Shown piece after piece: positions 9,786-24,339 of a stretch of 32,000 nucleotides of DNA; position 1 is the first letter of the stretch; each line of letters begins with the position of its first letter. The notes under the pieces were generated by a model that was not told the origin of the DNA, did not search any database, and worked only from the letters and a program-made list of their open reading frames with translations. Made by a program: the position numbers and the translations under genes. This DNA is from Candidatus Lokiarchaeum ossiferum (lineage in GTDB: Archaea; Asgardarchaeota; Lokiarchaeia; Sigyniarchaeales; Promethearchaeaceae). The stretch is from contig CP104013.1 in assembly GCA_025839675.1 (NCBI GenBank), positions 3,780,001 to 3,812,000 of the forward strand, written 5' to 3'.

Positions 9786-10259
9786 TTATTTATTTTTTTT
9801 AAAGGGATTTGGTCCTATTTTTTTAAGAATCTTGACATACTCATGAACAATTTCAGTCAGTTCTGCACCTTCACTTGCAGAAATATGTCTTAACCAAACT
9901 CTGTTTGGATTAATTCCAAATTGTTGGATATACTTAGAAATCATTGGAATCCGACGCACCGTTTTGTGATTTCCATTAACATAATGACAATCACCAATGT
10001 GACACGCTCCAACTAATACTCCATCGACTCCTCTTTTCAGAGCAGCTAGCACCATTGCAGGTTCTACTCGGCCTGAACACATTACTCGCATTACACGTAA
10101 ATTTGCGGGTCGTTGCATTCGAGAGGTTCCCGCTTGATCACAGCCTGTATATGTACACCAATTACAAAAAATCCCCAAAATGAAAGGTTCAAAATCATTA
10201 TTCAATGCTGGATCACTATCTGAAACTGTCTCCAAGTTTTTCCCTATTGTGTCGGTCAT
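9786..10259 (-). CDS. mvhD: MvhD/FlpD-type hydrogenase iron-sulfur subunit (delta subunit of methyl-viologen-reducing hydrogenase family)
   Basis: Signature FCNWCTYTGCDQAG, then MCSGRVEP and GACHIGDCHY. Starts 1 nt after the hdrA stop. Confidence 0.85.
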   Translation of the reverse strand: MTDTIGKNLETVSDSDPALNNDFEPFILGIFCNWCTYTGCDQAGTSRMQRPANLRVMRVMCSGRVEPAMVLAALKRGVDGVLVGACHIGDCHYVNGNHKTVRRIPMISKYIQQFGINPNRVWLRHISASEGAELTEIVHEYVKILKKIGPNPFKKNK

Positions 10260-10260
10260 T

Positions 10261-12264
10261 TTAAGTATCTCCTAGAATAGAGTTAATAATAGCCATTAGT
10301 TGGGGGGTAGAAAAATGATTCTGGGTTATAGCATTGCTTGGACAAGTACTAACACAAGTACCACAACCTTTGCATTTAATGCTATTTATTTCTGCTTTGT
10401 TTATTGATTGATTAAACGATATTGCTCCAAATGGGCATTGTTCGATACAGGAACGGCATCCCGAGCATAATCCCGTTTCTACAAATGAATAATAGGGTTC
10501 CACTTCAATTTCCTGTTGAGCCATCAAGGAAGCTGCACTCGCTGCAGCAGCTTTTGCTTGAGCCACCGCATCTGGAATATCCTTAGGGCCTTGAGCAGCT
10601 CCTGCCATAAAAATACCCTCAGTCAAACTATCAACCGGTCGCAATTTTGGATGAGCTTCCAAAAAAAACCCATCTGCTGAACGTTGAATGGTAAGCTGCG
10701 TACTCAGCTGTTCTGCATCATATCTCGATTCCAGACCAACGGATAGAACCACCATATCTACTTGAATTTCGAGGGGTTTTCCAAATAAAGTATCTTCTCC
10801 TCGGATTATTATTGATTTATTCTCTGGATTTTCTGCTAACTCTGATACTCTTCCACGAATGAATTTTATTCGATAATCTCGGGAAGCACTTTCGTAAAAC
10901 TCTTCATATCCTTTTCCAAAAGCGCGAATATCTATATAAAAGATATAAATCTCCGCTTCTGGATGTTTTTCTTTATATTGACGAGCTTGTTTAATTGCAT
11001 ATAAACAACACACACGGCTGCAATAGGGGTGACAGCCTGCTCGTGTATCTCGGCTTCCCACACATTGAATCCATGCTATAGAGTGAGGTGCTTTATTATC
11101 GGAAGGTCGGGCAGGTTTTCCCAATGTGGGTCCTGTGCTACTAAGAAGACGTTCCATTTGAAGTCCATTAATCACATTTTCATATTTGCCATATCCATAA
11201 TTGTGCAAGTATTGCGGATTAATTACATCGTAACCCGTCGTTACAATGATTGTTCCAACATCGAGGTCTAATATATTATCGTTATCATCAAAGTTAATTG
11301 CTCCAGGCTCGCAAACATCTGGTCGAGAACAAATTCCGCAGTGAATACAATGGTTGAGATCAATCGTATATTTTCCCGGCACCGCTTGAGGAAATGGTAT
11401 ATAAATGGCTTTACGGGCATTCATTCCCAGATCAAATTCATTTCCTATCGAAACGGGGCAGTATTGGACACAAGCTCCACATCCAGTGCATTTTTCCTGA
11501 TTAACATAATGGGCTTTTTGCCGAATAGAAACTCTGAAATTGCCGACATATCCATCGATTTTTTCAACTTCTGAGTATGATAAGATTTTAACTTGTGGAT
11601 TTCGGGAGATTTCAACCATCTTAGGTGTTAAAATACATGCAGAGCAATCCATTGTTGGAAATGTTTTATCAAGTTGTGCCATATGTCCTCCTATCGAGAG
11701 ATCTCGTTCCACGAGGTAGACTTGGTAACCTTGAATTGCCAATTCAAGTGCGGAAAATATTCCCGAAATTCCTGCTCCAATAACAAGGCACGATGGCAAA
11801 ACTTTAACCTTTTGTGGGTATAGCGCTTTTAGTGCAGCTGCTTTTCCAATTTGCATGCGTAAATGGTCTTTTGCAATCCGTGTTGCTCCAGGAACATCAT
11901 ACATATGAACCCAAGTCGCATGTTCTCGAATGTTGGCTTGAACAAAATAGTAAGGATTTAATCCTGCTGAAGCCAACACTTGACGAAAGGTTGGTTCGTG
12001 CATTCGCGGACTACATGCTGCAACTACTACTCGATTGACTAAATCATCTTGTATATCTGATTTAATCATATTTTGTCCCACTTCAGAACAAAAAAATTTG
12101 TATTGGCGAGCGACAGAAACAAAGGGCAGTGTTTTTACAAATTCAACTAAGAGATCAACATTAATAACGCCCCCAATGTTCAAACCGCAATGACAGATAT
12201 ATACTCCAATTTTTATCTCCTTCTGAGTAAAATCTTTCTGAGCAGATTTCTTCTTCGACAACAC
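10261..12264 (-). CDS. hdrA: Heterodisulfide reductase subunit A (Cys-type HdrA, FAD plus multiple [4Fe-4S])
   Basis: N-terminal IGVYICHCGLNIGG and VVVAACSPRMHEP. FAD fold VIGAGISGIFSALELAIQG. TFPTMDCSACILTPKM. Inserted and C-terminal ferredoxin motifs (CTGCGACVQYCP, CSGCRSCIEQCP, CKGCGTCVSTCP). Confidence 0.92.
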   Translation of the reverse strand: MLSKKKSAQKDFTQKEIKIGVYICHCGLNIGGVINVDLLVEFVKTLPFVSVARQYKFFCSEVGQNMIKSDIQDDLVNRVVVAACSPRMHEPTFRQVLASAGLNPYYFVQANIREHATWVHMYDVPGATRIAKDHLRMQIGKAAALKALYPQKVKVLPSCLVIGAGISGIFSALELAIQGYQVYLVERDLSIGGHMAQLDKTFPTMDCSACILTPKMVEISRNPQVKILSYSEVEKIDGYVGNFRVSIRQKAHYVNQEKCTGCGACVQYCPVSIGNEFDLGMNARKAIYIPFPQAVPGKYTIDLNHCIHCGICSRPDVCEPGAINFDDNDNILDLDVGTIIVTTGYDVINPQYLHNYGYGKYENVINGLQMERLLSSTGPTLGKPARPSDNKAPHSIAWIQCVGSRDTRAGCHPYCSRVCCLYAIKQARQYKEKHPEAEIYIFYIDIRAFGKGYEEFYESASRDYRIKFIRGRVSELAENPENKSIIIRGEDTLFGKPLEIQVDMVVLSVGLESRYDAEQLSTQLTIQRSADGFFLEAHPKLRPVDSLTEGIFMAGAAQGPKDIPDAVAQAKAAAASAASLMAQQEIEVEPYYSFVETGLCSGCRSCIEQCPFGAISFNQSINKAEINSIKCKGCGTCVSTCPSNAITQNHFSTPQLMAIINSILGDT

Positions 12265-12364
12265 ATATAAATGTTGAAGTAGACGTTAATAAATGTTCAA
12301 TTACCTTACTGTTAAATAAATAAAGTTCGATCAATAATTTTCCCATTTTGGAGGACACACAAAT
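12265..12364. promoter_or_regulatory. Divergent promoter region between hdrA (Cys-type) and the HdrD-like/NuoEFG-like operon
   Basis: 100-bp AT-rich spacer with TATA-like boxes (CATATAAAT 12264-12272; TTAAATAAATAA 12312-12323). A GGAGG SD-like box at 12350-12354 sits 10 nt before TTG 12365. Confidence 0.4.
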
Positions 12365-13600
12365 TTGATTCATAACATTTCTTCGCTTGATTTAAAAAAA
12401 CTGCTTGATATATCGATCTATTGTTATACGTGCAATGCGTGTAGTATGGTATGTCCTCTAAATCTGGTAAAAGATTTTTCTCCTCGCTATTTCTTATCCC
12501 AATTGAGGTTAAACGGGTTAAAAGATATGGATTCTTTTTTAGCTGATAATGAAGATATCTATAAGTGCATCACTTGCCAACAGTGTATGACAGAATGTCC
12601 AATGTCTAAACCAGGTGAAGGGATGAATATCGTAGAGATTATCCGTATTTTACGGGAATACTCATTCGAAAATAAGCTCAATGCGAAAGAACTTCAACAA
12701 CATTGTACCCATCAGTCAATGATGCAACTAAATTCCACTCTCCATAGTCAATCCGCATCAGTTATTAATCGCATTGATTATATTAGGTCCGATCCTTCAC
12801 TAAAATTTACTGATACAGGTGAAATTGGTTTGTTCTTAGGATGTTTTCAATTTATGGAAGATCTGTTTGAAATACCTAATCGTGAATTTACTGATATCGC
12901 CCGAGGTGCTATAAAGCTTTTAAATCAAAATGATATTGTCCCTGTTATATTAGAAACAAAGTGTTGCGGCCATGATCTATATTGGATGGGAGATACAAAC
13001 AATACAAAAAGATTAGCCGAATTCAATGTGCAAAAATTTAAAGACGCGGGAGTCAAAACCATCATTACAGAATGTGCTGAAGGATACTACATGTGGAAAT
13101 ATGTGTACCCCAAATTGGTGATTGAATGTGATTTTAAAGTCATCCATTTCAGTGAATATATTATCCAGAGCGAGTTACTCAAAAAAATGTTTATGCATCC
13201 ATTAAAAATGAAGGTTACCTATCATGATCCATGCCGTCTTGGACGCTTAAGTAATATATTTGAACCTCCACGACAAATTTTATCCATTCTACCCGGAATT
13301 ACCTATTTAGAAATGAAACACAATCGCACTACCTCATTATGTTGTGGTGTATCAGCCTTTCTTGATTGTAATGCAGAAAAGAAAGTGTTCAGAGAGCTTC
13401 GAATACAAGAAGCAATGGATATAGGTGCAGATTATATCGTCACTACTTGCCCAAAATGTATTGTTCATTATAATTGTTATCTGAAAGAAGTATCCACAAA
13501 TATTCAAAATAGCCAGAATCCCAATGACCAAGATTCAAGACCATTGCCCAAATTGATCGACTTATCTACTTTCCTCGCCAAATATTTTATGTTAATATGA
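12365..13600 (+). CDS. HdrD-like (fused HdrC/HdrB-type) Fe-S protein: 2x[4Fe-4S] ferredoxin domain plus two CCG cysteine-rich domains
   Basis: CYTCNACSMVCP and CITCQQCMTECP at the N-terminus. CCG domains: LGC...KCCGHD and HDPCRLGR...SLCCGVSA...TTCPKC. The TTG start is supported by the upstream GGAGG. Confidence 0.8.
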   Translation: MIHNISSLDLKKLLDISIYCYTCNACSMVCPLNLVKDFSPRYFLSQLRLNGLKDMDSFLADNEDIYKCITCQQCMTECPMSKPGEGMNIVEIIRILREYSFENKLNAKELQQHCTHQSMMQLNSTLHSQSASVINRIDYIRSDPSLKFTDTGEIGLFLGCFQFMEDLFEIPNREFTDIARGAIKLLNQNDIVPVILETKCCGHDLYWMGDTNNTKRLAEFNVQKFKDAGVKTIITECAEGYYMWKYVYPKLVIECDFKVIHFSEYIIQSELLKKMFMHPLKMKVTYHDPCRLGRLSNIFEPPRQILSILPGITYLEMKHNRTTSLCCGVSAFLDCNAEKKVFRELRIQEAMDIGADYIVTTCPKCIVHYNCYLKEVSTNIQNSQNPNDQDSRPLPKLIDLSTFLAKYFMLI

Positions 13601-13643: not shown

Positions 13644-14156
13644 ATGAGTCCCCAAGAAAAACCAAAGACAATAACTAAGCCAGGTATTGATACATCAAAA
13701 GTTGAAAAAATCATTCAAAATTATATAGAGAACAATGGAAATGCGCTGACAATTTTGCAATCCGTCCAAGAATCTTTTGGTTATTTACCCTTCGAAGTTA
13801 TTGAACATATTTCCGAAAGAATTGGCATTCCCCTTGGAAAAATGTATGGTATTGCCACATTTTATGCCCAATTCAAATTTCATCGAAGAGGCAAATATAT
13901 TATTCAAATTTGTGATGGAACGGCTTGTCATGTTAAGGGATCAATGTTATTGGAAGAATTCATTACTAAAGAATTAGGGATTAAACCCACAGAAACTACC
14001 TCGGATAATTTGTTTTCTTTGGAAAAAGTGGCCTGTTTTGGATGTTGTGCAATTGCTCCAGTTGTTTTCATTAATAAAGATGTCTATGGCAATCTAACAC
14101 CAGCAAAATTAAAGAAAATTTTTAAAAAATATCGTAGAATGGAGGCCACTCCTTGA
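13644..14156 (+). CDS. nuoE: NuoE/HydC-like thioredoxin-fold [2Fe-2S] subunit
   Basis: CDGTACHVKG ... CFGCCAIAP. GGAG box 8 nt upstream of the ATG. Stop TGA at 14154-14156 overlaps the next gene's TTG start. Confidence 0.85.
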   Translation: MSPQEKPKTITKPGIDTSKVEKIIQNYIENNGNALTILQSVQESFGYLPFEVIEHISERIGIPLGKMYGIATFYAQFKFHRRGKYIIQICDGTACHVKGSMLLEEFITKELGIKPTETTSDNLFSLEKVACFGCCAIAPVVFINKDVYGNLTPAKLKKIFKKYRRMEATP

Positions 14157-15967
14157 AAAAGCAGAAGATTGAAATTATAGTGTGTTGCAGCACAGGTTGT
14201 AATTCCCTTGGGGGGCAAGAAATATATGAAGAATTAGAAAAATGTATTAAAGACTACAAACTCGACAAACATGTGAAAGTTAAACCCACTGGTTGCCATG
14301 GATTCTGCCAAACAGGTCCTAGGATGTTGATCAATCCAGAAGGTGTGCTGTATGTATATCTAAAAAAAACTGATGTTAAAAAAATCATTGAACAACATCT
14401 CATTGGGGGTAAAATCGTTGAAGAACTCACGTACAAAGATCCTGTGACAAAAAAAACCGTCCAAAAACGAGATGATATCAATTTTTACAAGTATCAAGTA
14501 TCAATAACAACAAAAAATTGTGGTAAAATTAATCCTGAAGACATCAACGATTATTTAGCTGTTGGAGGGTACGAATCCCTAAAAAAGATACTTCAAATGA
14601 AACCAGATCAAGTTATTAAAGAAGTCTCAACCTCACGACTTAGGGGAAAGGGAGGGGCTGGATTTCCAACAGGAACAAAGTGGTCCTTTCTTGCTCAAGA
14701 AGCAAATACTCCAAAGTACTTGATATGTAACGGTGATGAAGGAGATCCTGGTGCATTTATGGATCGCACAATTATGGAAAGTGATCCTCAATCGGTGATT
14801 GAGGGAATGCTTATAGGTGCGTATGCAACCGGAGCTTCTTCTGGATTTGTGTATGTTCGAGCAGAAAAACCCCTTGCCGCCTCTCGGATGGCGAAAGCTA
14901 TTGAACAAGCTCAAGAACACGGTTTTTTAGGCTCTAATATACTAAATTCTGGGCTGGATTTTGATCTTCAGATTAGAAAAGGGGCTGGTGCATTCGTATG
15001 TGGAGAAGAAACCGCTCTTATGAGTTCCATTTTAGGAAATAGAGGTAGTCCGCGCCCACGCCCACCATATCCCGCTAATTCTGGATTATGGGGTAAACCT
15101 ACAAATATTAACAATGTGAAAACTTGGGCGACTATTCCGAAAATTTTTGCCATGGGGGCAGAGAATTATGCAAAAATTGGAACTGCAGATTCATCGGGAA
15201 CTGCTATTTTGTGTCTCTCGGGGAATATCAACAACGCGGGATTAATAGAAATTCCAATGGGTACCACTATCCGCAGAGTTGTTTATGATATTGGTGGGGG
15301 GTGTCCCAATGGAAAAAAATTTAAGGCGATACAAATTGGAGGACCATCCGGGGGATGCATTCCAGAACAATATCTCGATGTGGAAATGATCGATACACAA
15401 ATTGATTTCAAATCGATCACTTCTTTAGGTGCAATCATGGGTAGTGGTGGGTTAATTGTCCTTGATGAGTCTACTTGCTTAGTTGATATGGCCCGCTATT
15501 TTATCCAGTTCACTCAAAATGAATCCTGTGGAAAATGTGTCCCGTGTCGTATAGGTACACGCAAGATGCTTCGTATTCTCGATAGAATCGTCACGGGGCA
15601 AGGCTCTTATGAAGATTTAGATGAATTAGAATCTTTGGCATATACTATTAAAAATGCCAGTTTATGCGGCTTGGGGCAAACGGCTCCAAATCCCATTATT
15701 AGTACTCTTAAATATTTCCGTGATGAATACGAAGCCCATATTAAAGGAATATGTCCTGCTTTAGTGTGTAAAAATTTGATTACTTATCACATTTCTGATG
15801 AAAATTGTATCGGATGCGGATTATGTGCCAAAAATTGTCCAGTAAATGCAATTCAAGGGGAATTGAAGAAGAAATTCCACATTGATACTAATCTCTGCAT
15901 TAAATGCGGATTGTGTTTTAGTTCCTGTCATAATAATGCAATCTATAAAAAAACAGGGGGAAAGTAG
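14153..15967 (+). CDS. nuoF: NuoF/HydB-like NAD(H)- and FMN-binding flavoprotein with an extra N-terminal [2Fe-2S] domain and a C-terminal 2x[4Fe-4S] domain
   Basis: LRGKGGAGFPTGTKW (FMN/NADH site), CGKCVPCRIG (N3 cluster), N-terminal CCSTGC...CHGFC, C-terminal CIGCGLCAKNCP and CIKCGLCFSSC. GGAGG lies 7 nt upstream of TTG 14153. Confidence 0.9.
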   Translation: MKKQKIEIIVCCSTGCNSLGGQEIYEELEKCIKDYKLDKHVKVKPTGCHGFCQTGPRMLINPEGVLYVYLKKTDVKKIIEQHLIGGKIVEELTYKDPVTKKTVQKRDDINFYKYQVSITTKNCGKINPEDINDYLAVGGYESLKKILQMKPDQVIKEVSTSRLRGKGGAGFPTGTKWSFLAQEANTPKYLICNGDEGDPGAFMDRTIMESDPQSVIEGMLIGAYATGASSGFVYVRAEKPLAASRMAKAIEQAQEHGFLGSNILNSGLDFDLQIRKGAGAFVCGEETALMSSILGNRGSPRPRPPYPANSGLWGKPTNINNVKTWATIPKIFAMGAENYAKIGTADSSGTAILCLSGNINNAGLIEIPMGTTIRRVVYDIGGGCPNGKKFKAIQIGGPSGGCIPEQYLDVEMIDTQIDFKSITSLGAIMGSGGLIVLDESTCLVDMARYFIQFTQNESCGKCVPCRIGTRKMLRILDRIVTGQGSYEDLDELESLAYTIKNASLCGLGQTAPNPIISTLKYFRDEYEAHIKGICPALVCKNLITYHISDENCIGCGLCAKNCPVNAIQGELKKKFHIDTNLCIKCGLCFSSCHNNAIYKKTGGK

Positions 15968-18886
15968 ATGGAAAATCAATCACTTATCATAGATGGGAAA
16001 GAAATCGAGTTTTTTAAAGGGGAAACTATCTTGATGGCTGCCGAGCGTGCAGGAATTTATATTCCTCGATTATGCTATATCGATGGAATGACCCCTTATG
16101 GTGGATGTCGCTTATGTATTGTTAAATTGGTCGGGGATCTTCGTCCAATTCAGCCTTCTTGTTCAACTCCTGCAAAAGCAGGAATGAATATTATTACAAT
16201 TGATGAAGAACTTCAACGTATGAGAAAAGATATTATACAATTGATGATCAGCGAACACCCGAATACTTGTCTGGTTTGTGGTCATAAAACGGTTTGCGAA
16301 GATTACCAAACTCAATTCAAAAAAAACCCCGAGAAACGGGTATTTGGCTGTTATAACTGCTCTCAAAAAAATAAGTGCGAGCTCCGAGAAATTATCGACT
16401 ACATCGGAGCGAGTGATTTGACTCAAGAATTTGAATATAAAAATTATGAAATTGAAAATTTGGACCCTTTTTTTGAAAGACATTATAATTTGTGTATCGT
16501 TTGTGGGAAATGCGTGCGAGTTTGTGGAGAACTGCGGGGAATCAATGCGATAGATTTTTTTGGTCGGGGACATGATCTCAGGATATCCACTCCAATGAAT
16601 ATGCTTCATATTGAAACTAACTGCCAATTTTGTGGGGCATGTGTAGATATCTGTCCTACCGGAGTCCTCGTCCCTTTAATGCAGACTTGGACACGAACAC
16701 GTGAGATTTTCACCAAATCGATTTGTGGACATTGCTCGATTGGCTGTGGTTTAAACTACTACATGGAAAATGAAGAACTTGTGGAAACTATTCCGAACAA
16801 AAGCGCAAAGATCAATAAGGGTCAAGCGTGTGTTTTTGGACGGTTTTGCATTCCTGTTTTTAATAGGCGAAATGAAACTCAGTTTCACACTCCTTTGATT
16901 CGTTCTGACAATATTCTAAAACCAGTCATGTACAATGAAGCATATTCCACTTGTATCACGATGCTTCGGAAATATTCTCCCGATGAAATTGCAGTGCTAG
17001 CATCTCCAGACCTATCAAATGAGAGTGCTTTTATTTTAAATCAATTTGCATCAAAAGTATTAAAAACATCCAATATAGCAACCATTTGTGATAACAATTG
17101 CTTAGAAAATTTTCAATTATTAACAGCGATTCCTCGATCACTTGATCATATTCCAAAATCTGATTGGATTTTATTGGTTGATGCAAATCCTCAAGTATCC
17201 CACCCTCTCATTTTAATTGATATAAAGAAGGCTAAGGATCTCAATAAGACGATAGTAAGCTTAAAACATTCGCCATTGAAAATTGCGCCAGAAACAAAAT
17301 GGTTGCTGGATGAAGAGTTGCTATTATCAGAAGATAGTCTAATTTCTAAGCTTAGTGAATTTCAAGAAGGAATTGGGAGTATTCTGGTCGGACCTCAAAC
17401 AACATCAAATATTTTCATTAGTCTAATCAATCTTTGCCTTAAAAACCCGAATATTAATTTGATTCCATTACGATCTCGAGCCAATTTGGATGGCGTTTTC
17501 CAATTTATCCCTCAAACAGAAGATCTTGTATACAATGCCATAAAGGAAAAAAAAATTAAAGTATTGCTAACCACTGAAAGAATCTCCCCCACATTGGCCA
17601 AATATGTGGAGAACATCATTTTATTAGATATTTTTCCCTCGGATTTTTCCAATAAAGCGAATATTATTTTTCCAGTTACGACATTTCCCGAATCATCAGG
17701 AACTCTTACGAATATTGAATTTGACAACCAACGATTTTATGCAAGCGTTACACCCTTTCGCGATGCAAAACCCGATTGGCAAATCATTTGTGAACTTGCT
17801 CAACAAATGAAGACAGAAGGGTTTAATTATACCAATGTGCAGGATATTATGGAAAATTTACCCATGATCCCAAGTGTTCAAATTACTGATCTAAATCTTC
17901 TCCTCCTAAAAAAAATGTCCCTCCAATATGGAAAACCAATCAGTTGGGATGATTTTGTCTATAGAGGAGAGAAAATTTCAAATCGTGTTCCAGATTTGAA
18001 GAAAATCATTGAATATCGAAAAACAAAGAATCCGGAGTTAATTGCTGGAGTCCTAACTGCAAGTCAGGATGAAACAACTGGTTTAATTGAGATAGAAATT
18101 GATGGGAAAGGTATGGTGAAGGTTGGGACGCAATTCTTCGGGTTGGATTCTATTAAATCAATCATAAAAATTGCGCATCTTTCAAATTATCGTTTGAAAA
18201 TTATCGTTGATGCATCTAATCCTAATTTCAGATATGTAGATCGCCATAAATTTTGTATGTGCAACAATTACAAAGCAAATTTGAACGAATCTCATATTTT
18301 AATTGATTTTGCTCCATCGTTGTGTGATATGTATCTTCGAATTCCCCAAGAAGGGGATGAAATCCTAAAGAGTGTGGATGGACTTATTATGGTTGATAGT
18401 AGATACACAAACATTACTGAAGAAGAATATCACGAATTTGTTCAAATTGGCGATAGTAAAACCAAAATGCAAGAGCGAGCACTGCATCGAGCCCATCAAC
18501 TTCTCAAAGATGAATCTATCTATTATTCATTGAATCATATTCAGACCCAAGAAAAATCGATGCTTCGACCAACATGGGGCGTTTGGAATAAAAAAGTGCC
18601 GGAATATAAAGAAACAACTTCTTCTATAATACAACAAACTCAAAAAGTAGTCCTTGTTGATCAAGATTTATGCATGGGATGCAGAACTTGCGAGAAATAT
18701 TGTAAACACGAAGCAATTTCGTATGTGTTGATCAACCAAGATGTTGGAATATTTAAGGGAAAAGAAATGCAAAAAGCAACCATCGATGGCACAAAATGTT
18801 ATAACTGTTCGAAATGTATTTCCCACTGTCCAGTAAATGCCATATATATTCGTGAATGGCCGGTAGAAGAAACATCCTTGAAATAA
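15968..18886 (+). CDS. NuoG/HydA-N-terminal-like multi-Fe-S subunit with a degenerate molybdopterin-oxidoreductase-like domain, an unassigned ~200-aa region and a terminal 2x[4Fe-4S] ferredoxin domain
   Basis: [2Fe-2S] N-terminus (IIDGKEIEFFKGETILMAAERAGIYIPRLCY...GGCRLCIV). EHPNTCLVCGHKTVCE, then a second CYNCSQKNKCEL. CIVCGKCVRVC and CQFCGACVDICP. MopB-type CGHCSIGCG...KGQACVFGRF. No Cys/Sec-His active-site motif (ICDNNCLENF at the corresponding place) and no H-cluster motifs. C-terminus CMGCRTCEKYC and CYNCSKCISHCP. Confidence 0.8.
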   Translation: MENQSLIIDGKEIEFFKGETILMAAERAGIYIPRLCYIDGMTPYGGCRLCIVKLVGDLRPIQPSCSTPAKAGMNIITIDEELQRMRKDIIQLMISEHPNTCLVCGHKTVCEDYQTQFKKNPEKRVFGCYNCSQKNKCELREIIDYIGASDLTQEFEYKNYEIENLDPFFERHYNLCIVCGKCVRVCGELRGINAIDFFGRGHDLRISTPMNMLHIETNCQFCGACVDICPTGVLVPLMQTWTRTREIFTKSICGHCSIGCGLNYYMENEELVETIPNKSAKINKGQACVFGRFCIPVFNRRNETQFHTPLIRSDNILKPVMYNEAYSTCITMLRKYSPDEIAVLASPDLSNESAFILNQFASKVLKTSNIATICDNNCLENFQLLTAIPRSLDHIPKSDWILLVDANPQVSHPLILIDIKKAKDLNKTIVSLKHSPLKIAPETKWLLDEELLLSEDSLISKLSEFQEGIGSILVGPQTTSNIFISLINLCLKNPNINLIPLRSRANLDGVFQFIPQTEDLVYNAIKEKKIKVLLTTERISPTLAKYVENIILLDIFPSDFSNKANIIFPVTTFPESSGTLTNIEFDNQRFYASVTPFRDAKPDWQIICELAQQMKTEGFNYTNVQDIMENLPMIPSVQITDLNLLLLKKMSLQYGKPISWDDFVYRGEKISNRVPDLKKIIEYRKTKNPELIAGVLTASQDETTGLIEIEIDGKGMVKVGTQFFGLDSIKSIIKIAHLSNYRLKIIVDASNPNFRYVDRHKFCMCNNYKANLNESHILIDFAPSLCDMYLRIPQEGDEILKSVDGLIMVDSRYTNITEEEYHEFVQIGDSKTKMQERALHRAHQLLKDESIYYSLNHIQTQEKSMLRPTWGVWNKKVPEYKETTSSIIQQTQKVVLVDQDLCMGCRTCEKYCKHEAISYVLINQDVGIFKGKEMQKATIDGTKCYNCSKCISHCPVNAIYIREWPVEETSLK

Positions 18887-18894
18887 TGTAGTAG

Positions 18895-18902
18895 AAAAAA
18901 AA
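18895..18902 (-). terminator. Oligo-T (T8 on the minus strand) terminator candidate for the Sec-type hdrA transcript
   Basis: A8 on the plus strand equals U8 in the minus-strand transcript, 8 nt after the 3'-UTR hairpin. Confidence 0.45.
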
Positions 18903-18910
18903 GAGTTTGG

Positions 18911-18982
18911 CAATTAGCTTCATCGTTGCAAGATGCATCATGTTTACTCGAAGTTTTTAGTAAACGGTCATCTGACTAATTG
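18911..18982 (-). promoter_or_regulatory. Candidate SECIS-like (kink-turn) RNA element in the 3' UTR of the Sec-type hdrA
   Basis: Minus-strand RNA: CAAUUAG-UCAG-AUGA-CC-GUUUACU-[AAAAACUUCG]-AGUAAAC-AUGAUG-(CAUC-UUGCAAC-GAUG)-AAG-CUAAUUG. It has an outer 7-bp helix and an inner 7-bp helix. AUGA faces UGAU, giving U.U, G.A and A.G pairs. The apical loop is A-rich. It starts 67 nt after the stop codon. Confidence 0.5.
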
Positions 18983-18990
18983 TTCATTTA

Positions 18991-18996
18991 TTTTTT
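18991..18996 (+). terminator. Oligo-T (T6) terminator candidate for the NuoG-like gene transcript
   Basis: T6 on the plus strand, about 105 nt after the stop at 18884-18886 and just beyond the same palindromic structure. Confidence 0.35.
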
Positions 18997-19049
18997 GCAA
19001 GTGGTGGTGTAGAGGTAGTTTTGTTGAGATTTGATAAAGAATTTCTTCT

Positions 19050-21026
19050 TTATCGCAGAGCATTGACCAAAATTCCATCGATTAAATCGTTGTAATGTTC
19101 TCCTCGATAATATCTAAGAGTGATCGCTTCATTCGCGCACACAGATGCACATAAACCACATCCTCGACAGATAATGTTATCCACAATCGCTCCTTGTTCA
19201 AGATCGATCGTGATGGCTTGATATGGGCACGTTGCAGCGCACATACCGCATCCAGAACATTTCTCTGTATCAGTAATTGCTCGAATTAAATCGATTCGAT
19301 ATTCTCTATTGGCTAACAATTTACACATTGATGAAGATGCGCCTTTAGCTTGCATAATCGATTCTGAGATGTCTTTAGGACCATGACAAGCTCCTGCTAG
19401 AACGATTCCGGGAACATCTGTGTCAACTGTATTTAATCGCTGATGGAATTCTTTCAAAAATCCATTCGAACTTAATTGCAACCCAAGCAATTCATTCAAG
19501 GAGGCAAAGGATTTAGAGGGAACCATTGAAGTTGACAGAACAATCATATCAAATTCGAATTTCTTGATTGTATTATTTGGATCCAGAGAATCTTCCATGA
19601 TCACAGTTAGTACTTTGGATTGGGGATCCTCCTCAATGGATACCACTTTGGTTCGAATAAAGTCAACCCTTGCTTTTCGTGCTTCAAGGTAGTATTCTTC
19701 ATAACCCTTTCCTGCGGCACGAATATCTATATAAGATACTACAACCTCCATCTCCGGATTGTGGGATTTAGCTAATTTTGCATTTTTGATTGAAACCATG
19801 CAGCAGACGCCCGAGGAACAATAAATATTTCTTTTCATATCCCGTGAACCAACACAGTTGATGAAAAGAATACTCTTTGGCGGTTGATTATCACTTGGCT
19901 TAACGAGATGACCAACTACCGGCCCGTTGGGGGCCAATAATCGTTCAAAGGTCACTTCCGTAATAACATTGTCATAAATCCCATAACCTAAATATCCTAT
20001 TTCGGGGATGAATTCATCCCATCCTGTAGCGACAATAACGCCCCCGAATTTCTTGGTTATTTTAGTTTCCGTTTGGTTGAAATCTATTGCTTTTAATTCA
20101 CATACATTCACACAGTTTCCACATTTGATACAGACTTTCATATCAATTTGTGCTTTTGAGGGAACGGCTTGTGCAAATGAGATGTAAATTGCTTTTCGTG
20201 GATCCATTCCTTGGTTAAATTCACAAGCACCAATTGTAGGGCACACTTCAAAGCAAGCACCGCATCCATTGCAATCTTGAGTCGTATATCGAGGTTTTTG
20301 AGTGATTTCCACTTCAAAGTTTCCAACATATCCACTAAACTTAGTTATTTCAGCAAATGTATACATTTCAATGTTTTTGTTCCGTTGGGCTTCCAACATT
20401 AACGGACCCAAAATTCAGATAGAGCAATCATCAGTGGGAAATGTTCTGTCAAGCATCGCCATCTTCCCCCCAATTGTAGGTTTTTCTTCTACTAAACACA
20501 CTCGAATTCCTTGATTGCCTAAATCTAGCGCTGATTGCAAACCTGCGACTCCACCTCCTATCACTAAAACTGAATCTGTGATTGGAACTATAAGTTCAGG
20601 GATATTTTCAAGTTTGTGGGCTCGAGAAACACCTGCAGAGATTAAATCCTTCGCTTTTTCCATTGCTGCATCTTTAGTCTTTCGATGCACAAAGCTACAG
20701 TGTTCTCGGAGATTTATAAATTCTAAAAACGCTGTATCTATGCCTATCTCATCTAAAACGGCTCTAAACACGGGTTCATGTGTTTTAGGTGTACAAGCGG
20801 CAACAACAATTCGATTTAAGTGAAAATCATCCACATTCTTTTTGATGAAATCTGCCCCCCCAGTCGTGCACATTGATAAATATTCATCTGCCATCATAAC
20901 ATTTGGTAAATTCTTAGCATAGTTGGCGAGTGTGGCACAATCAAGTATCTCTGCAATATTAATGCCTCAACGACAAATAAACACACCTATACGAATTTCT
21001 TGCTCTTCCAAAGGTAATGTTGACAT
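19050..21026 (-). CDS. hdrA: Heterodisulfide reductase subunit A, selenocysteine-containing (two in-frame UGA/Sec codons); merges ORF-track entries 19050-20411 and 20415-20897 with an unlisted 5' segment 20970-21026
   Basis: One continuous frame from ATG 21024-21026 (GGTG box 5 nt upstream; in-frame TGA then non-coding sequence further upstream) to TAA 19050-19052. It is colinear with the Cys-type HdrA over its whole length. RIGVFICR-U-GINI matches KIGVYICH-C-GLNI, and FPTDDCSI-U-ILGPLM matches FPTMDCSA-C-ILTPKM. Confidence 0.85.
20415..20417 (-). other. In-frame UGA, predicted selenocysteine codon 2 of hdrA (FAD-domain DCSxC/U motif)
   Basis: Plus-strand TCA is TGA on the minus strand. Flanked by ...GAT GAT TGC TCT ATC TGA ATT TTG GGT CCG..., i.e. 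DDCSI-U-ILGP. Confidence 0.8.
20967..20969 (-). other. In-frame UGA, predicted selenocysteine codon 1 of hdrA (N-terminal CxCG motif)
   Basis: Plus-strand TCA is TGA on the minus strand. Context GVFICR-U-GINIAEILD aligns with GVYICH-C-GLNIGGVIN in the paralog. Confidence 0.75.
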
Positions 21027-21192
21027 TCATAGCACCATGAATTTTTCATTTTCAATCATTCTCAAAGGTGAAGTTTACTTCTTTCGCTTGTGCGACCAAT
21101 GTGTGAAGTATATTCATCTCATTTCATTGAATTACAAAAATGATTTTTATTCACAATATTGATATACTCTCACTGAAAAGGTTTTTAAATAT
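21027..21192. promoter_or_regulatory. Divergent promoter region between Sec-type hdrA and the TPR-hdrB/polyferredoxin/hdrC operon
   Basis: 166-bp AT-rich spacer with TATA-like TTTTTAAATAT (21182-21192). Contains two TGAAGT motifs that also occur in the other hdr divergent spacer. Confidence 0.35.
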
Positions 21193-23007
21193 TTGGATAG
21201 AAAGTATAAACTGTTACAATTCCTCACAAACGAAGTTGATCAGCAGATGACTTTTACCCCCCTTGAAGCCCGGAGTTATTACCAACATCTAATTAATCAA
21301 GATCCACAAGATCCAAGCGGATATCTTGGGATGGGTGATCTTGCGTTTTATGGTGGTTTTTATCAAGAAGCTATCTCATATTTTACTCAAGCAATTAATT
21401 GTGACTCCCAAAATTTTGCCAGTTGGGTCGGTTTAACAAAAATTTTTCTACATTATAATAGTATTCAACAAGCAGAAGAATGTCTCATCGAGGCTTTGAA
21501 TGTAGATCCTATAAACCATGAAGCTCTGATTCTCGCAACGATAATTAAAATCCGCTTAAATGAATATGCTAAAGGATTAGATTTCCTTGATAAAATTGGG
21601 GAAGACAATGAAAGCCCTTATGATTCGCTATCTCTATATTTGCGTGGATATATCGCATGTTTGCTTGGTGATTTTGAAGATGGGTTAGAACATTTAAAAT
21701 CTTGCGAGGTGTTGCCTCCCTTTAATGATAAAACCAACTCAAATTATCAAATTTTGTGGAATAATTTGGGGGTCGCAAATTTTCGGTTTAAGAGATTTAC
21801 GGAAGCCGAAAATTATTTACAGAATATCACTCAAAAATTTCCTTTATGTGATTCCATTTCGTGGCTAAATCTCGCCATGGTTTATTGGGCTCAAGACAAA
21901 ATCGATCAAAGTATCATAATATTCGAAAAAATCCAATCTTTACAACCAAAACTATGGCCCTGGTTAAAAGAAACCAAAGAATATCGCAGTCGGGGTCAAG
22001 AATGGTTACACGAAGCGATTCAAAATTTGCAAACCGAATCTACAATTTACAATGTTGGATTGTATTTAGGCTGCGTGATTCCTAATCGATATCCTTTTAT
22101 TGAGGCTGCTACTCGTCATGTATTTGATACTTTAAATATAGGTGTCGTAGATCTTGAAGGTGCATCTTGTTGTCCCGCTCCGGGGGTATTTCGATCATTT
22201 GATATTGAAACTTGGTTGACATTGGGTGCCCGAAATATTACAATAAGCGAACAATTGCAACGAGATCTCGTAACCATGTGTAATGGGTGCTATGGAACGT
22301 TGAATGATGTGAATTATGAACTTAAAACGGATTCAGAAAAACGAACGCTTGTAAATGATAATTTGAATAAAGTAGATCGTGAATTCCAAGGATCCATTAA
22401 CGTCCGTCATATTATTGATGTACTTTTTAATGAAATTGGTCTTGACGCACTCAAAAAACGAATTACGCATCCATTGACACTTAGAGTGGCTGTTCATTAT
22501 GGGTGTCATCTCCTAAAACCGATGAAAACTAAACCTTGGACCGAAGATTGGGAAGAGCCGACGTTTTTTGATGATTTGGTGGAAATTACGGGGGTTACGT
22601 CAGTTCCCTATAAGGAAAAAATGATGTGTTGCGGGGCTGGAGGTGGAGTTCGGGGTGCCTTGAAAGAAATTTCATTGGATTTTACCCGAGAAAAATTAAT
22701 CCACATGCGAGATGCAGGGATTGATGCCATTGTGGTATGCTGTCCATTCTGTCATCTCCAATTTGACATTGGCCAATTGGAAGTAAATAATATCTTCAAG
22801 AAACAAATTCGAGATCCCTTTAACATTCCCGTAATTTATATCACTCAATTACTCGGGTTAGCAATGGGATTTGATCCCTTTCGAATGGGCTTGCTAAAAA
22901 CACCGCAAGAAAAAGGAGTTCCCCCCATGAATAAATTTGAACTTCTCTTCACAAAATATAAACCATTAGATCTTCACAATACATCACTGTTTTTGCCCAG
23001 GACTTGA
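21193..23007 (+). CDS. hdrB: TPR-repeat domain fused to heterodisulfide reductase subunit B (two CCG domains)
   Basis: Residues from about 286 to the end are colinear with canonical HdrB: LYLGCVIPNRYPFIEAATR, LEGASCCPAPGVF, NGCYGTL, VAVHYGCHLLKP, KMMCCGAGGGVR, CCPFCHLQFD. Residues 1 to about 285 are called TPR-like by eye from Tyr/Ala/Leu-rich stretches (e.g. GYLGMGDLAFYGGFYQEAISYFTQAINCD); the repeat register was not verified. Start is TTG 21193 or ATG 21247. Stop TGA at 23005-23007. Confidence 0.85.
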   Translation: MDRKYKLLQFLTNEVDQQMTFTPLEARSYYQHLINQDPQDPSGYLGMGDLAFYGGFYQEAISYFTQAINCDSQNFASWVGLTKIFLHYNSIQQAEECLIEALNVDPINHEALILATIIKIRLNEYAKGLDFLDKIGEDNESPYDSLSLYLRGYIACLLGDFEDGLEHLKSCEVLPPFNDKTNSNYQILWNNLGVANFRFKRFTEAENYLQNITQKFPLCDSISWLNLAMVYWAQDKIDQSIIIFEKIQSLQPKLWPWLKETKEYRSRGQEWLHEAIQNLQTESTIYNVGLYLGCVIPNRYPFIEAATRHVFDTLNIGVVDLEGASCCPAPGVFRSFDIETWLTLGARNITISEQLQRDLVTMCNGCYGTLNDVNYELKTDSEKRTLVNDNLNKVDREFQGSINVRHIIDVLFNEIGLDALKKRITHPLTLRVAVHYGCHLLKPMKTKPWTEDWEEPTFFDDLVEITGVTSVPYKEKMMCCGAGGGVRGALKEISLDFTREKLIHMRDAGIDAIVVCCPFCHLQFDIGQLEVNNIFKKQIRDPFNIPVIYITQLLGLAMGFDPFRMGLLKTPQEKGVPPMNKFELLFTKYKPLDLHNTSLFLPRT

Positions 23008-23014
23008 AATCACT

Positions 23015-23776
23015 ATGTTCCCAAAACTCATAAAGCATGTTAGCTATACTCAAATCAGATTAGAGCAAAAATTTGTTGGTAGAAATGTTGAACTAATCAT
23101 CGATCGTTTACGATGTGTAGGCTGTGGTATTTGCAGTCGTGTTTGTCCTCAAGATGCGATTTCGATTGGTCCTAAGGTTACTTCCTATGGAAAAGAAAAG
23201 CAATTTGATGAAAAACTAATTGATAATTCAATTGATGAAGATAAATGTGTTTTTTGTGGTACCTGCAGCATTTTATGTCCATTTGATGCTCTTCACTTAT
23301 TTAAAGATGGTAAAAAAGTTGAACCAGCTGAAAACACTTTAGTGACAAAACAAGCGATACCAAAATTAGAAATACAGTATCTTCCCATGACTCGTATTAA
23401 TCAAACCGCAATGGTTTATTGGGAAGGTGAAATAAAAACGAACTTCGAATTTCCTACCTCAGAAAAAGAATTTCACCAGCATTACATCAATAAATGTCCG
23501 GGTGATTGTAGAAAATGCTTAAAAATTTGTCCTAATGAAGCCATTTCATTTCTTCCTGCTGAAAATGCATGGAAATCCAAAAAAATAATTGAAATCGATA
23601 ACACAAAGTGTATCAAGTGTAGAGCCTGTTCAATAGTTTGTCCACAAAGTATTTTCGAAGTGAAATGGACAAAAATTCATTTTTTGGGACCAGTTAATGA
23701 ATGTTTCTGGACTCCTCTAGTCAATAAGCTTCTAAAAGTAAATTCTTCATTAACCGGACAGAAAGAACTGTCTTAG
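23015..23776 (+). CDS. Polyferredoxin-like protein with four [4Fe-4S]-type Cys motifs
   Basis: CVGCGICSRVCP, CVFCGTCSILCP, CPGDCRKCLKICP (non-standard spacing), CIKCRACSIVCP. Confidence 0.8.
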   Translation: MFPKLIKHVSYTQIRLEQKFVGRNVELIIDRLRCVGCGICSRVCPQDAISIGPKVTSYGKEKQFDEKLIDNSIDEDKCVFCGTCSILCPFDALHLFKDGKKVEPAENTLVTKQAIPKLEIQYLPMTRINQTAMVYWEGEIKTNFEFPTSEKEFHQHYINKCPGDCRKCLKICPNEAISFLPAENAWKSKKIIEIDNTKCIKCRACSIVCPQSIFEVKWTKIHFLGPVNECFWTPLVNKLLKVNSSLTGQKELS

Positions 23777-23787
23777 GTGTTTAAATT

Positions 23788-24339
23788 ATGGAATATTTAA
23801 AAAAAGATATAATTCAATCGTACAGGGGAAGTATTGAAGAAGAAATAATCAAAGATCACGCTTTGAAAGCAATTAATGCGTGTTTTCAATGTGGGACATG
23901 TAGTGGTGGATGTCCCTCGGGACGACGAACGGCCTTGGTTACTCGAAAAATTATTCGCAAAGCGATTTCGAATATGGAGGATGTGTTAAATGATAAGGAG
24001 ATTTGGATGTGCACAACGTGTTATACCTGTTTTGAGAGATGTCCCCGATCCGTACCAATCACTGACATCATAATCAAACTTCGCAATTTAGCCGTTAGGA
24101 AGGGTAATATGCTTGAATCACACAAGCAATTATCGCATGTTCTCATACAAACGGGTCATGGTGTGCCTCTTGGAAATGCTGACAATCAATGGGCTAAATT
24201 GCGTATGTCCTGTGGATTATCTCCTCTGCCCCCAACCACCCATATGCACCCCGAAGCTATTGAAGAAATTGCTATTCTGGTAAAAAAAACTCACTTTGAT
24301 AAATTAGTTGGCTATCCTCGAATAATTACTACGGACTAA
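23788..24339 (+). CDS. hdrC: Heterodisulfide reductase subunit C (2x[4Fe-4S])
   Basis: CFQCGTCSGGCPSGR and CTTCYTCFERCPRSV in a protein of typical HdrC size (183 aa). An AGGTG SD-like box lies 8 nt upstream. Confidence 0.85.
   Translation: MEYLKKDIIQSYRGSIEEEIIKDHALKAINACFQCGTCSGGCPSGRRTALVTRKIIRKAISNMEDVLNDKEIWMCTTCYTCFERCPRSVPITDIIIKLRNLAVRKGNMLESHKQLSHVLIQTGHGVPLGNADNQWAKLRMSCGLSPLPPTTHMHPEAIEEIAILVKKTHFDKLVGYPRIITTD

Follow-up and report, generated by a model that had tools for sequence, protein, structure and literature searches.

A candidate two-selenocysteine hdrA gene with a putative private SECIS element in Candidatus Lokiarchaeum ossiferum

The gene described here, hdrA, lies on the reverse strand of a 32-kb stretch of the genome of the cultured Asgard archaeon Candidatus Lokiarchaeum ossiferum (GenBank assembly GCA_025839675.1, contig CP104013.1, positions 3,780,001 to 3,812,000; hereafter the window, numbered from its first letter). 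Its frame, 21026..19050, is interrupted by two TGA codons, and with a probability of roughly 0.9 it is a genuine selenoprotein gene that encodes a full-length HdrA-family product with two selenocysteine (Sec) residues, most likely decoded by a single private selenocysteine insertion sequence (SECIS) of the eukaryote-like lokiSECIS type in the 3' untranslated region (3'UTR). Selenoproteins with several Sec residues were already known in Lokiarchaeota (Mariotti 2016, PMC4989117), as the preliminary description of the window, made from the sequence alone, had rightly stated. The coordinates of all features are collected in Table 1.

The reading frame and its two UGA codons

A single minus-strand frame broken by two TGA codons only had been claimed for this gene, and translation bears this out. 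The frame comprises 659 codons up to and including a TAA stop and is interrupted just twice, by TGA at codons 20 and 204 (UGA-20 and UGA-204); neither frameshifts nor further stops are found in it. The chance of a frame of such length free of TAA and TAG at the 36.6% GC of the window is about 1e-15. The mechanical list of open reading frames (ORFs) cuts the gene into 19050..20411 (453 residues, TTG start) and 20415..20897 (160 residues, ATG start) and has no entry for the first 19 codons, in agreement with what had been pointed out. The NCBI record for the gene is a C-terminal fragment of 449 residues, 100% identical to this product, under the name 'H(2)/formate:CoB-CoM heterodisulfide,ferredoxin reductase subunit A [Candidatus Lokiarchaeum ossiferum]'.

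Both TGA codons were said to fall on conserved cysteines, with homology continuing on either side of each. When U is written as C, the product aligns with the Cys-type paralogue of the window (10261-12264) over 656 residues, with 42% identity (E=1e-173), and this paralogue has Cys opposite both TGA codons, in the motifs GVYICHCGLNIGG and FPTMDCSACILTPKM. The alignment to solved HdrA proteins also spans the full length, and the two positions are C or U in every one of the 75-85 loci of the census presented below, so that both statements stand.

TGA terminates 6 of the 23 main ORFs of the window, among them the three named in the preliminary description (ends 14156, 23007 and 6081), and no other gene-like frame with long coding pieces bridged by TGA is found in the 32 kb. 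The recoding is therefore local, as had been proposed, and does not reflect a reassigned code.

Conservation of the gene among orthologues

Four orthologues were compared, three of them (L001-L003) from metagenome-assembled genomes (MAGs) of Promethearchaeota or Promethearchaeum, with about 87% amino acid identity, and a fourth (L007) with 81%, within an overall range of 80-87%. Both TGA codons are present in all four, while 30-45% of the other codons have changed, and the coding sequence is conserved on either side of each TGA. Relative to L001, the numbers of identical, synonymous and non-synonymous codons are 18/1/0 for codons 1-19, 106/53/24 for codons 21-203 and 279/115/59 for codons 205-658; synonymous change exceeds non-synonymous change in all three segments, and the remaining orthologues behave like L001.

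The segment directly after the first TGA is the most telling with respect to read-through. There is no ATG, GTG or TTG between UGA-20 and codon 44, so codons 21-43 can be expressed only if UGA-20 is read through. These 23 codons show 5-7 synonymous versus 1-5 non-synonymous differences among the orthologue comparisons and, as judged from these substitution counts, they are under purifying selection.

The leader of about 90 nucleotides (nt; 21027-21120) and hdrA codons 1-16 (20979-21026) have near-invariant nucleotides among the four orthologues, in contrast to the rest of the gene, where about 30% of codons differ synonymously. Upstream lies a further ATG in the same frame (21038-21036); the codons after it are GTG CTA TGA, and this TGA (21029-21027) abuts the hdrA start codon, whereas L007 has TAT in its place. 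Constraint on the promoter and the Shine-Dalgarno motif could explain the conservation, or else an RNA element.

A SECIS element in the 3' untranslated region

The 3'UTR of hdrA reads AUGA-CCGUUUACU-AAAAACUUCG-AGUAAACAU-GA at 18971-18938 on the minus strand. A permissive regular expression for AUGA, stem, loop and GA gives about 25 chance matches in the window, and a covariance model was used for this reason instead. Eighty metagenome HdrA loci were fetched, candidate elements were sought downstream of Sec-type hdrA or of hdrA-vhuD, and the model, R1, was trained on 21 aligned Asgard SECIS elements that exclude the locus of the window and its orthologues. In the training helices 91% of the cells are paired, versus 38-46% when the partner columns are slid, a percentage that is inflated by the pairing filter with which the training elements were chosen. 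The variety of pair types is not inflated by this filter, and in that respect 11 of the 12 pairs change on both sides and none of 500 shuffles reaches the covariation score. With six elements from outside the training set, two-sided changes persist in five pairs, and the score is attained in 2 of 500 shuffles.

Run with its filters off, R1 has a single significant match in the window, at 18908-18983 on the minus strand (30.9 bits, E=1.1e-5). The runner-up, at 20988-21071 on the same strand and spanning the start codon, reaches 11.6 bits (E=0.54) and was treated as a chance match. The model finds one match at the equivalent site in each orthologue and also in the hdrA-vhuD paralogue of L. ossiferum. 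Over 452 kb of loci, 25 of 25 matches at E<=0.01 lie on the hdrA strand, and those with compared positions fall at the candidate sites downstream of Sec-type hdrA or hdrA-vhuD. A SECIS of the bacterial type is ruled out, because neither UGA has a hairpin directly on its 3' side (65 nt folded for each, z = +0.82 and -0.02 versus shuffled sequence).

The element starts 67 nt after the TAA and its core lies 78 nt after it; the distance from the core to UGA-204 is 1,446 nt, and that to UGA-20 is 1,998 nt. From this position after the stop and before a U8 tract, it should be carried by the same transcript as hdrA, and the U8 tract is likely to mark the transcript end, in the manner of an archaeal oligo-T terminator. 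Helix I shows a compensatory change, with AUUAG/CUAAU in the window and L007 versus AUUGG/CCAAU in L001-L003, and the top pair of helix II, which has nine positions, is U-A in the window and L007 versus A-U in L001-L003. By analogy with eukaryotic SECIS elements and with the lokiSECIS model (PMC4989117), the core would form sheared pairs at the GA, and a kink-turn geometry of the AUGA/GA core is likewise putative.

The published descriptions of the lokiSECIS that were consulted comprise a 9-bp stem, an apical loop and a poorly conserved lower stem only. Constrained folds of 27 Asgard SECIS elements, including those of loci L005-L049, all give a three-way junction, in which a conserved hairpin of 4-5 bp, often with a GCAA or GCGA loop, stands between the core GA and the 3' arm of helix I; helix I also covaries across the Asgard elements.

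The HdrA protein and its Sec positions

The predicted product aligns end to end with solved HdrA proteins (9sfi_A, E=1.4e-194, residues 12-654; 5odc_A, E=1.8e-184; also 8rvu_a and 7bkb_A). Its five-domain set, with N-terminal Fe-S, FAD/thioredoxin-reductase, inserted ferredoxin and C-terminal ferredoxin domains, is intact, and so are all cofactor motifs (VIGGGVAG; CNGCGACFEVCP; CIKCGNCVNVCE; CVGSRD..YCSSGVCC; CSGCGMCAATCP; CRGCGLCASVCA). By these sequence features it is an HdrA-family flavo-iron-sulfur protein. The NCBIfam cut-offs for methanogen HdrA are missed (NF040770, 731.8 of 1100 bits; NF041778, 560 of 1400; NF041891, 538 of 1300), so the protein belongs to the HdrA family and should not be filed as a CoB-CoM heterodisulfide reductase equivalog.

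Codon 204 faces the X (Sec197) of Methanococcus maripaludis HdrA 9sfi_A and Cys197 of 5odc_A. The offset to the numbering of M. thermolithotrophicus HdrA is 7, so that Sec204 corresponds to Cys197 and Sec20 to Cys13. HdrA's N-terminal domain binds a [4Fe-4S] cluster (PMC9012536, PMC12054007), which in the crystal is held by Cys residues of the domain itself and by Cys197 of the partner subunit (PMC9012536), and which later cryo-electron microscopy (cryo-EM) places on a mobile arm as a 'shuttle cluster' (PMC13580544). In M. marburgensis the pair Cys202/Cys205, of which Cys205 is the equivalent of Cys197, binds an unknown ligand in cryo-EM (PMC13580544), and a putative selenylsulfide has been described for Sec197 of M. 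maripaludis (PMC13518236).

The N-terminal domain has exactly four Cys that are invariant, position 20 being among them, while the Cys at 30 and 110 vary. The structural literature describes the ligands of this cluster as N-terminal Cys plus Cys197 of the partner, and no explicit residue list was found in it; of the four invariant Cys, three or more must be ligands of the cluster, so that Sec20 would either coordinate it or stand right next to a ligand in the C-x-C motif. The preliminary description held that the first Sec supplies a ligand of an Fe-S cluster and that a selenolate there would be unusual. Within Asgard HdrA proteins Sec at this site is not unusual, as Sec20 occurs in 29 of 75 sampled Asgard loci and Cys197/Sec197 is itself a reported cluster ligand (PMC9012536).

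An alignment of the HdrA N-terminal domain to MvhD by hhalign, weak with a probability of 22%, sets the four invariant Cys opposite Cys columns of MvhD and position 20 opposite Cys16, a conserved Cys that reportedly is not a ligand and that is the first Sec of VhuD. In a Foldseek search with the AlphaFold model of the same domain of the paralogue (pLDDT 85.5), only HdrA chains are significant and MvhD is absent from the top 50. Since the hhalign alignment is weak and Foldseek does not return MvhD, homology between the two is a lead only.

In the sampled Asgard HdrA proteins, the recurrent Sec sites outside the C-terminal ferredoxin motif are 20, 53, 78 and 204, and up to all four are Sec in a single protein. 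Judging from their sequence positions, they may belong to one metal site, made up of the N-terminal 'shuttle' [4Fe-4S] domain and the Cys197-type ligand of the partner subunit, at which the two Sec of the window protein may meet. A bolder idea, which we regard as possible but doubtful, is that Asgard HdrA proteins carry a naturally selenium-ligated Fe-S cluster, in which Sec20 and Sec204' would be exchangeable selenolate ligands or would form a transient Se-Se or Se-S bond, and that this switch would be coupled to the swing of the mobile arm that gates electron bifurcation.

Sec in HdrA proteins of Asgard archaea

The census was made on the best 80 of more than 513 tblastn-confirmed matches to a Loki-type query, and its counts are not population frequencies. 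Where the N-terminal domain is complete (75 loci), TGA is confined to reference positions 20, 53, 78, 204 and 623/626, with one case at 623. Position 20 has U in 29 loci and C in 46; position 204, which could be read in 85 loci, has U in 65 of them and C in the other 20. Cys is constant at positions 18 and 201. Sec20 is always found together with Sec204 (29 loci), and the exact pattern of the window gene is present in 15 loci. One locus, L024, has the C-x-x-C-x-x-U-C motif described by Mariotti et al. for HdrA.2. On the basis of this motif and of the census positions, the 'five possible positions' of Mariotti et al. are very probably 20, 53, 78, 204 and 626, so that Sec20 is very probably already within the published Lokiarchaeota positions.

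In most multi-Sec loci of the sample vhuD follows hdrA, and the element, where the downstream sequence is available and one was found, lies 460-540 nt after hdrA, beyond vhuD. In the orthologue group of the window gene and in L020 and L021 there is no vhuD, and a private SECIS lies 48-153 nt after hdrA. L. ossiferum itself has a further Sec locus (L004, CP163304.1, 3377-5953), with an hdrA with three Sec (reference positions 53, 78 and 204) and a vhuD with two (C-W-K-U and G-G-U-H), followed by one SECIS after vhuD that apparently serves all five UGA codons; the species thus uses Sec elsewhere. The hdrA of L040 (SDBS01025859.1, 1901-3745), a gene cut off by the end of its contig, has five in-frame TGA codons, at reference positions 20, 53, 78, 204 and 623. 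The last of these falls on the second Cys of the final C-x-x-C-x-x-C ferredoxin motif, where no spare Cys is adjacent, and the count is one Sec above the published maximum of four, at a sixth position.

Database HdrA proteins of about 655-660 residues with 50-64% identity (P0002, P0009, P0070 and most others) have Trp at the Sec columns (CxWG, SLW, AAW, CSIW). The Trp falls on invariant Cys/Sec columns and is for this reason most likely an artefact of code choice; as far as the sequences tell, these entries are very probably selenoproteins mistranslated under a code in which TGA is Trp. They had been considered as full-length Cys-type controls and were dropped on account of the Trp.

Weighing the alternatives

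Several observations speak against the two-Sec interpretation or weaken it. No tRNA gene or Sec-machinery gene is found in the 32-kb window. Rfam SECIS families give no match in the whole window at the gathering threshold or in 18600-21300 at E<=10, the scans returning two chance-level matches only. Minimum free energy folding of the 3'UTR is no more stable than that of shuffled sequence (z = -0.4 to -0.6), and because of this the SECIS call rests on covariation and on the model score; the pairing filter already mentioned applied to the elements on which that model was trained. The apical loop has 10 nt here versus 11-12 nt in the 21 training elements, and just 57 nt separate UGA-20 from the start codon. 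Finally, what was observed directly is the frame with its conservation, the SECIS and the synteny; the actual insertion of Sec, the partner subunits and the chemistry are deduced from them.

That last point leaves some room for the idea that the UGA codons are real but not decoded as Sec, either through stop and restart with polypeptides that assemble afterwards, or through a near-cognate tRNA that inserts Cys or Trp; termination might also dominate when selenium is scarce. Each TGA does have a start codon after it (ATG at codon 44 and TTG at codon 206, respectively), and metagenome gene callers give homologues Trp at these sites. However, neither internal start is preceded by a Shine-Dalgarno-like motif, codons 21-43 lie beyond the reach of re-initiation and yet appear to be under purifying selection, a dedicated SECIS is conserved, and Sec has been modelled experimentally at the residue equivalent to Sec204 in the HdrA of M. 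maripaludis (9sfi_A; PMC13518236), while the Trp of the catalogues is most likely the code-choice artefact described above. Non-Sec decoding is hence improbable. Some gene callers chose a code of that kind for related contigs, which might suggest a genome-wide reassignment of TGA to a sense codon (code 4 or 25), but the six ORFs of the window that end in TGA do so where family profiles also end (the NuoE-like protein covers Pfam positions 1-145 of 145, and the HdrB homologue behaves likewise), and no other gene-like frame of the window is bridged by TGA, so that the likelihood of reassignment is negligible.

It could also be argued that the TGA codons are nonsense mutations in a decaying second copy of hdrA, given that the public annotation holds only a 449-residue fragment and that the function could be supplied by the Cys-type hdrA-mvhD pair 7 kb away. 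The selection pattern in the three segments already contradicts this, together with the absence of frameshifts and other stops, the intact cofactor motifs, the two TGA codons shared by orthologues at 80-87% identity and found at the same two columns in 15 sampled loci, and a SECIS maintained by compensatory changes, all of which make a pseudogene very improbable. As for sequencing or assembly errors that would have turned TGC or TGT into TGA, nothing favours them beyond their having been raised as an a priori possibility in the preliminary description. Two independent Logan assemblies from different runs (SRR22273277 and SRR32148622) are identical over 2,220 nt, including both TGA codons and the SECIS/3'UTR, an agreement that removes this rival, and the four orthologues with TGA at both sites come from other MAGs; hardly any chance is left to such errors. 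The interpretation as a two-Sec gene therefore stands as the preferred one.

Gene neighbourhood

The hdrA gene is flanked by two gene sets (Table 1). The divergent set, hdrB with its tetratricopeptide (TPR) extension followed by the polyferredoxin and hdrC genes, is conserved in L001-L003 and L007; the convergent NuoEFG-like neighbours, which end 24 nt from the SECIS, keep their synteny in L002, L003 and L007. The latter would possibly constitute an electron-input module, a functional link that is suggested by their position.

Table 1. Features of the hdrA locus, in window coordinates.
Feature	Position	Strand	Description and evidence
hdrA (Sec type)	21026..19050	-	ATG 21026-21024 to TAA 19052-19050; 658-residue product, Sec at residues 20 and 204
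UGA-20 (UGA-1), Sec20	20967..20969	-	Motif C-R-U-G, N-terminal Fe-S domain; equals Cys13 of M. thermolithotrophicus HdrA
UGA-204 (UGA-2), Sec204	20415..20417	-	Motif D-C-S-I-U; canonical HdrA Sec position, equals Cys197/Sec197
GGUG, Shine-Dalgarno-like	21033..21036	-	6 nt before ATG; same in all four orthologues; putative role
Complete SECIS, eukaryote-like lokiSECIS type	18911..18982	-	72 nt, three-way junction; covariance model R1, constrained folds
Helix I, 5' arm (CAAUUAGU)	18975..18982	-	Pairs with 18911-18918
Core AUGA	18968..18971	-	Invariant in 21/21 training elements
Helix II, 5' arm (CCGUUUACU)	18959..18967	-	Covariation across elements
Apical loop AAAAACUUCG	18949..18958	-	A-run at 5' side; AAA invariant in training set
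Helix II, 3' arm (AGUAAACAU)	18940..18948	-	Covariation across elements
Core GA	18938..18939	-	Partner of UGA in AUGA; putative tandem sheared G.A pairs
3' hairpin (CAUC-UUGCAAC-GAUG)	18921..18935	-	18935-18932 with 18924-18921; equivalent in 21/21 training elements
Helix I, 3' arm (GCUAAUUG)	18911..18918	-	Constrained folds
U8 tract directly after SECIS	18895..18902	-	T-run at same place in all orthologues
hdrB homologue, N-terminal TPR extension of about 280 residues	21193..23007	+	Divergent; TIGR03288 393 bits (cut-off 345); Pfam CCG x2 and TPR
Polyferredoxin gene (FwdF/VhuB-like)	23015..23776	+	Profile matches, synteny
hdrC homologue	23788..24339	+	TIGR03290 196.6 bits (cut-off 160)
nuoE-like, nuoF-like and nuoG/fdhA-like genes	13644..18886	+	Convergent; end 24 nt from SECIS

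The TPR extension of the HdrB homologue is present in L001-L003 and L007 and is unusual for HdrB. The last gene of the convergent set (15968-18886, plus strand), preceded by the NuoE- and NuoF-like genes, encodes a NuoG/HoxU/FdhA-like protein of 972 residues with 2Fe-2S, 4Fe-4S and molybdopterin-oxidoreductase domains and with two extra C-terminal 4Fe-4S motifs; the molybdopterin dinucleotide-binding family PF01568 has no match in it. Further upstream, at 9786-13600, the Cys-type hdrA-mvhD pair (10261-12264 and 9786-10259) faces a divergent HdrD/TfrB-like CCG protein (12365-13600). This set stands directly upstream of the NuoEFG-like genes, so that two Hdr modules flank one NADH-dehydrogenase-like module.

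Comparison with known systems

For Lokiarchaeia, both HdrA proteins with several Sec and the machinery for Sec have been documented (PMC4989117, PMC11227280), and according to a 2024 Asgard survey 85.9% of the genomes of Lokiarchaeia and Helarchaeales carry the Sec trait (PMC11227280). The window gene resembles the published Lokiarchaeota genes in its family and in the kind of 3'UTR SECIS (AUGA...GA), in that the canonical Sec is always present and further Sec residues stand on conserved Cys, in that one SECIS serves UGA codons up to about 2 kb away, and in the stop codon, since hdrA ends in UAA or UAG and Loki hdrA never ends in UGA (PMC4989117). It differs from them in its context. Asgard hdrA has been reported as always followed by vhuD, with a shared SECIS after vhuD (PMC4989117, PMC11227280), whereas the window and the four orthologues lack vhuD, the SECIS is private to hdrA and begins 67 nt after the stop in the window, and the neighbours are the hdrB(TPR)-polyferredoxin-hdrC and NuoEFG-like sets. 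The 10-nt apical loop also departs from the 11 nt of the published lokiSECIS. The stand-alone hdrA with a private SECIS is thus a variant of context and not of mechanism.

The HdrA of Methanococcales (Sec197; PDB 9sfi, PMC13518236) shares with the window protein the five domains and a Sec in the identical D-C-x-x-U column, but it has a single Sec, decoded by a classical archaeal SECIS, instead of two, and it reduces CoM-S-S-CoB, whereas the host Lokiarchaeon is non-methanogenic. Like VhuD/FrhD of the F420-non-reducing hydrogenase (PMC4989117, PMC13188914), the window gene combines two Sec with one 3' SECIS and a C-x-x-U motif, although VhuD binds a [2Fe-2S] cluster and the HdrA N-terminal domain a [4Fe-4S] cluster. 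Eukaryotic type I SECIS elements are similar in their location in the 3'UTR, in acting at a distance on several UGA codons, and in the AUGA, unpaired A and GA with an apical loop; the element described here differs from them in that it matches no Rfam SECIS model, has a helix II of nine positions and carries the extra 3' hairpin between the GA and helix I. The eukaryotic factor SBP2 is not known in Lokiarchaeota (PMC4989117).

A model for decoding and function

The proposed model begins with an mRNA that would run from the Shine-Dalgarno-led ATG through both UGA codons to the TAA, continue for 67 nt into the 72-nt SECIS and end at the U8 tract. The SECIS would act as such elements do in other archaea and in eukaryotes, bringing the Sec-specific elongation factor and Sec-tRNA(Sec) to ribosomes that pause at both UGA codons. 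Since the 3'UTR contains a single SECIS, one element probably serves both codons, which lie 1.45 and 2.0 kb upstream of it; in the mRNAs of neighbouring genes UGA would stay a stop codon. The protein would most likely partner the divergently encoded HdrB(TPR), polyferredoxin and HdrC, and may also partner the convergently encoded NuoEFG-like module, in a flavin-based electron-bifurcating complex. In this complex Sec204 would lie in the C-x-x-U motif next to the bifurcating FAD, and the N-terminal Fe-S domain would hold Sec20 in its C-x-U-G motif; both would stand in for redox-critical Cys, which surround the Cys-x-x-Cys relay and the mobile 'shuttle' [4Fe-4S] cluster.

Significance

The two-Sec kind of HdrA was already known in Lokiarchaeota, and the main value of this analysis is a corrected annotation. 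The record of a cultured Asgard archaeon holds a 449-residue fragment, and metagenome catalogues hold the relatives as fragments or with Trp for Sec, so that metabolic reconstructions and HdrA phylogenies built on such entries are affected. The locus also provides a clean case of one eukaryote-like SECIS with two UGA codons 1.45 and 2.0 kb upstream and no vhuD partner. This stand-alone arrangement relaxes the published picture in which hdrA and vhuD always share one SECIS, and the compact 72-nt element suits reporter tests, in a lineage that is central to the story of the SECIS from archaea to eukaryotes.

The interest of the gene comes mainly from this stand-alone context, from the cultured host and from Sec positions that point at debated cysteines. 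The latter mark the Cys under discussion in recent cryo-EM studies of electron-bifurcating Hdr, namely those of the Cys-x-x-Cys197 pair and of the shuttle-cluster domain. Selenium in HdrA would offer a spectroscopic handle on them, and its natural substitution at these sites argues for redox or nucleophilic chemistry by those residues.

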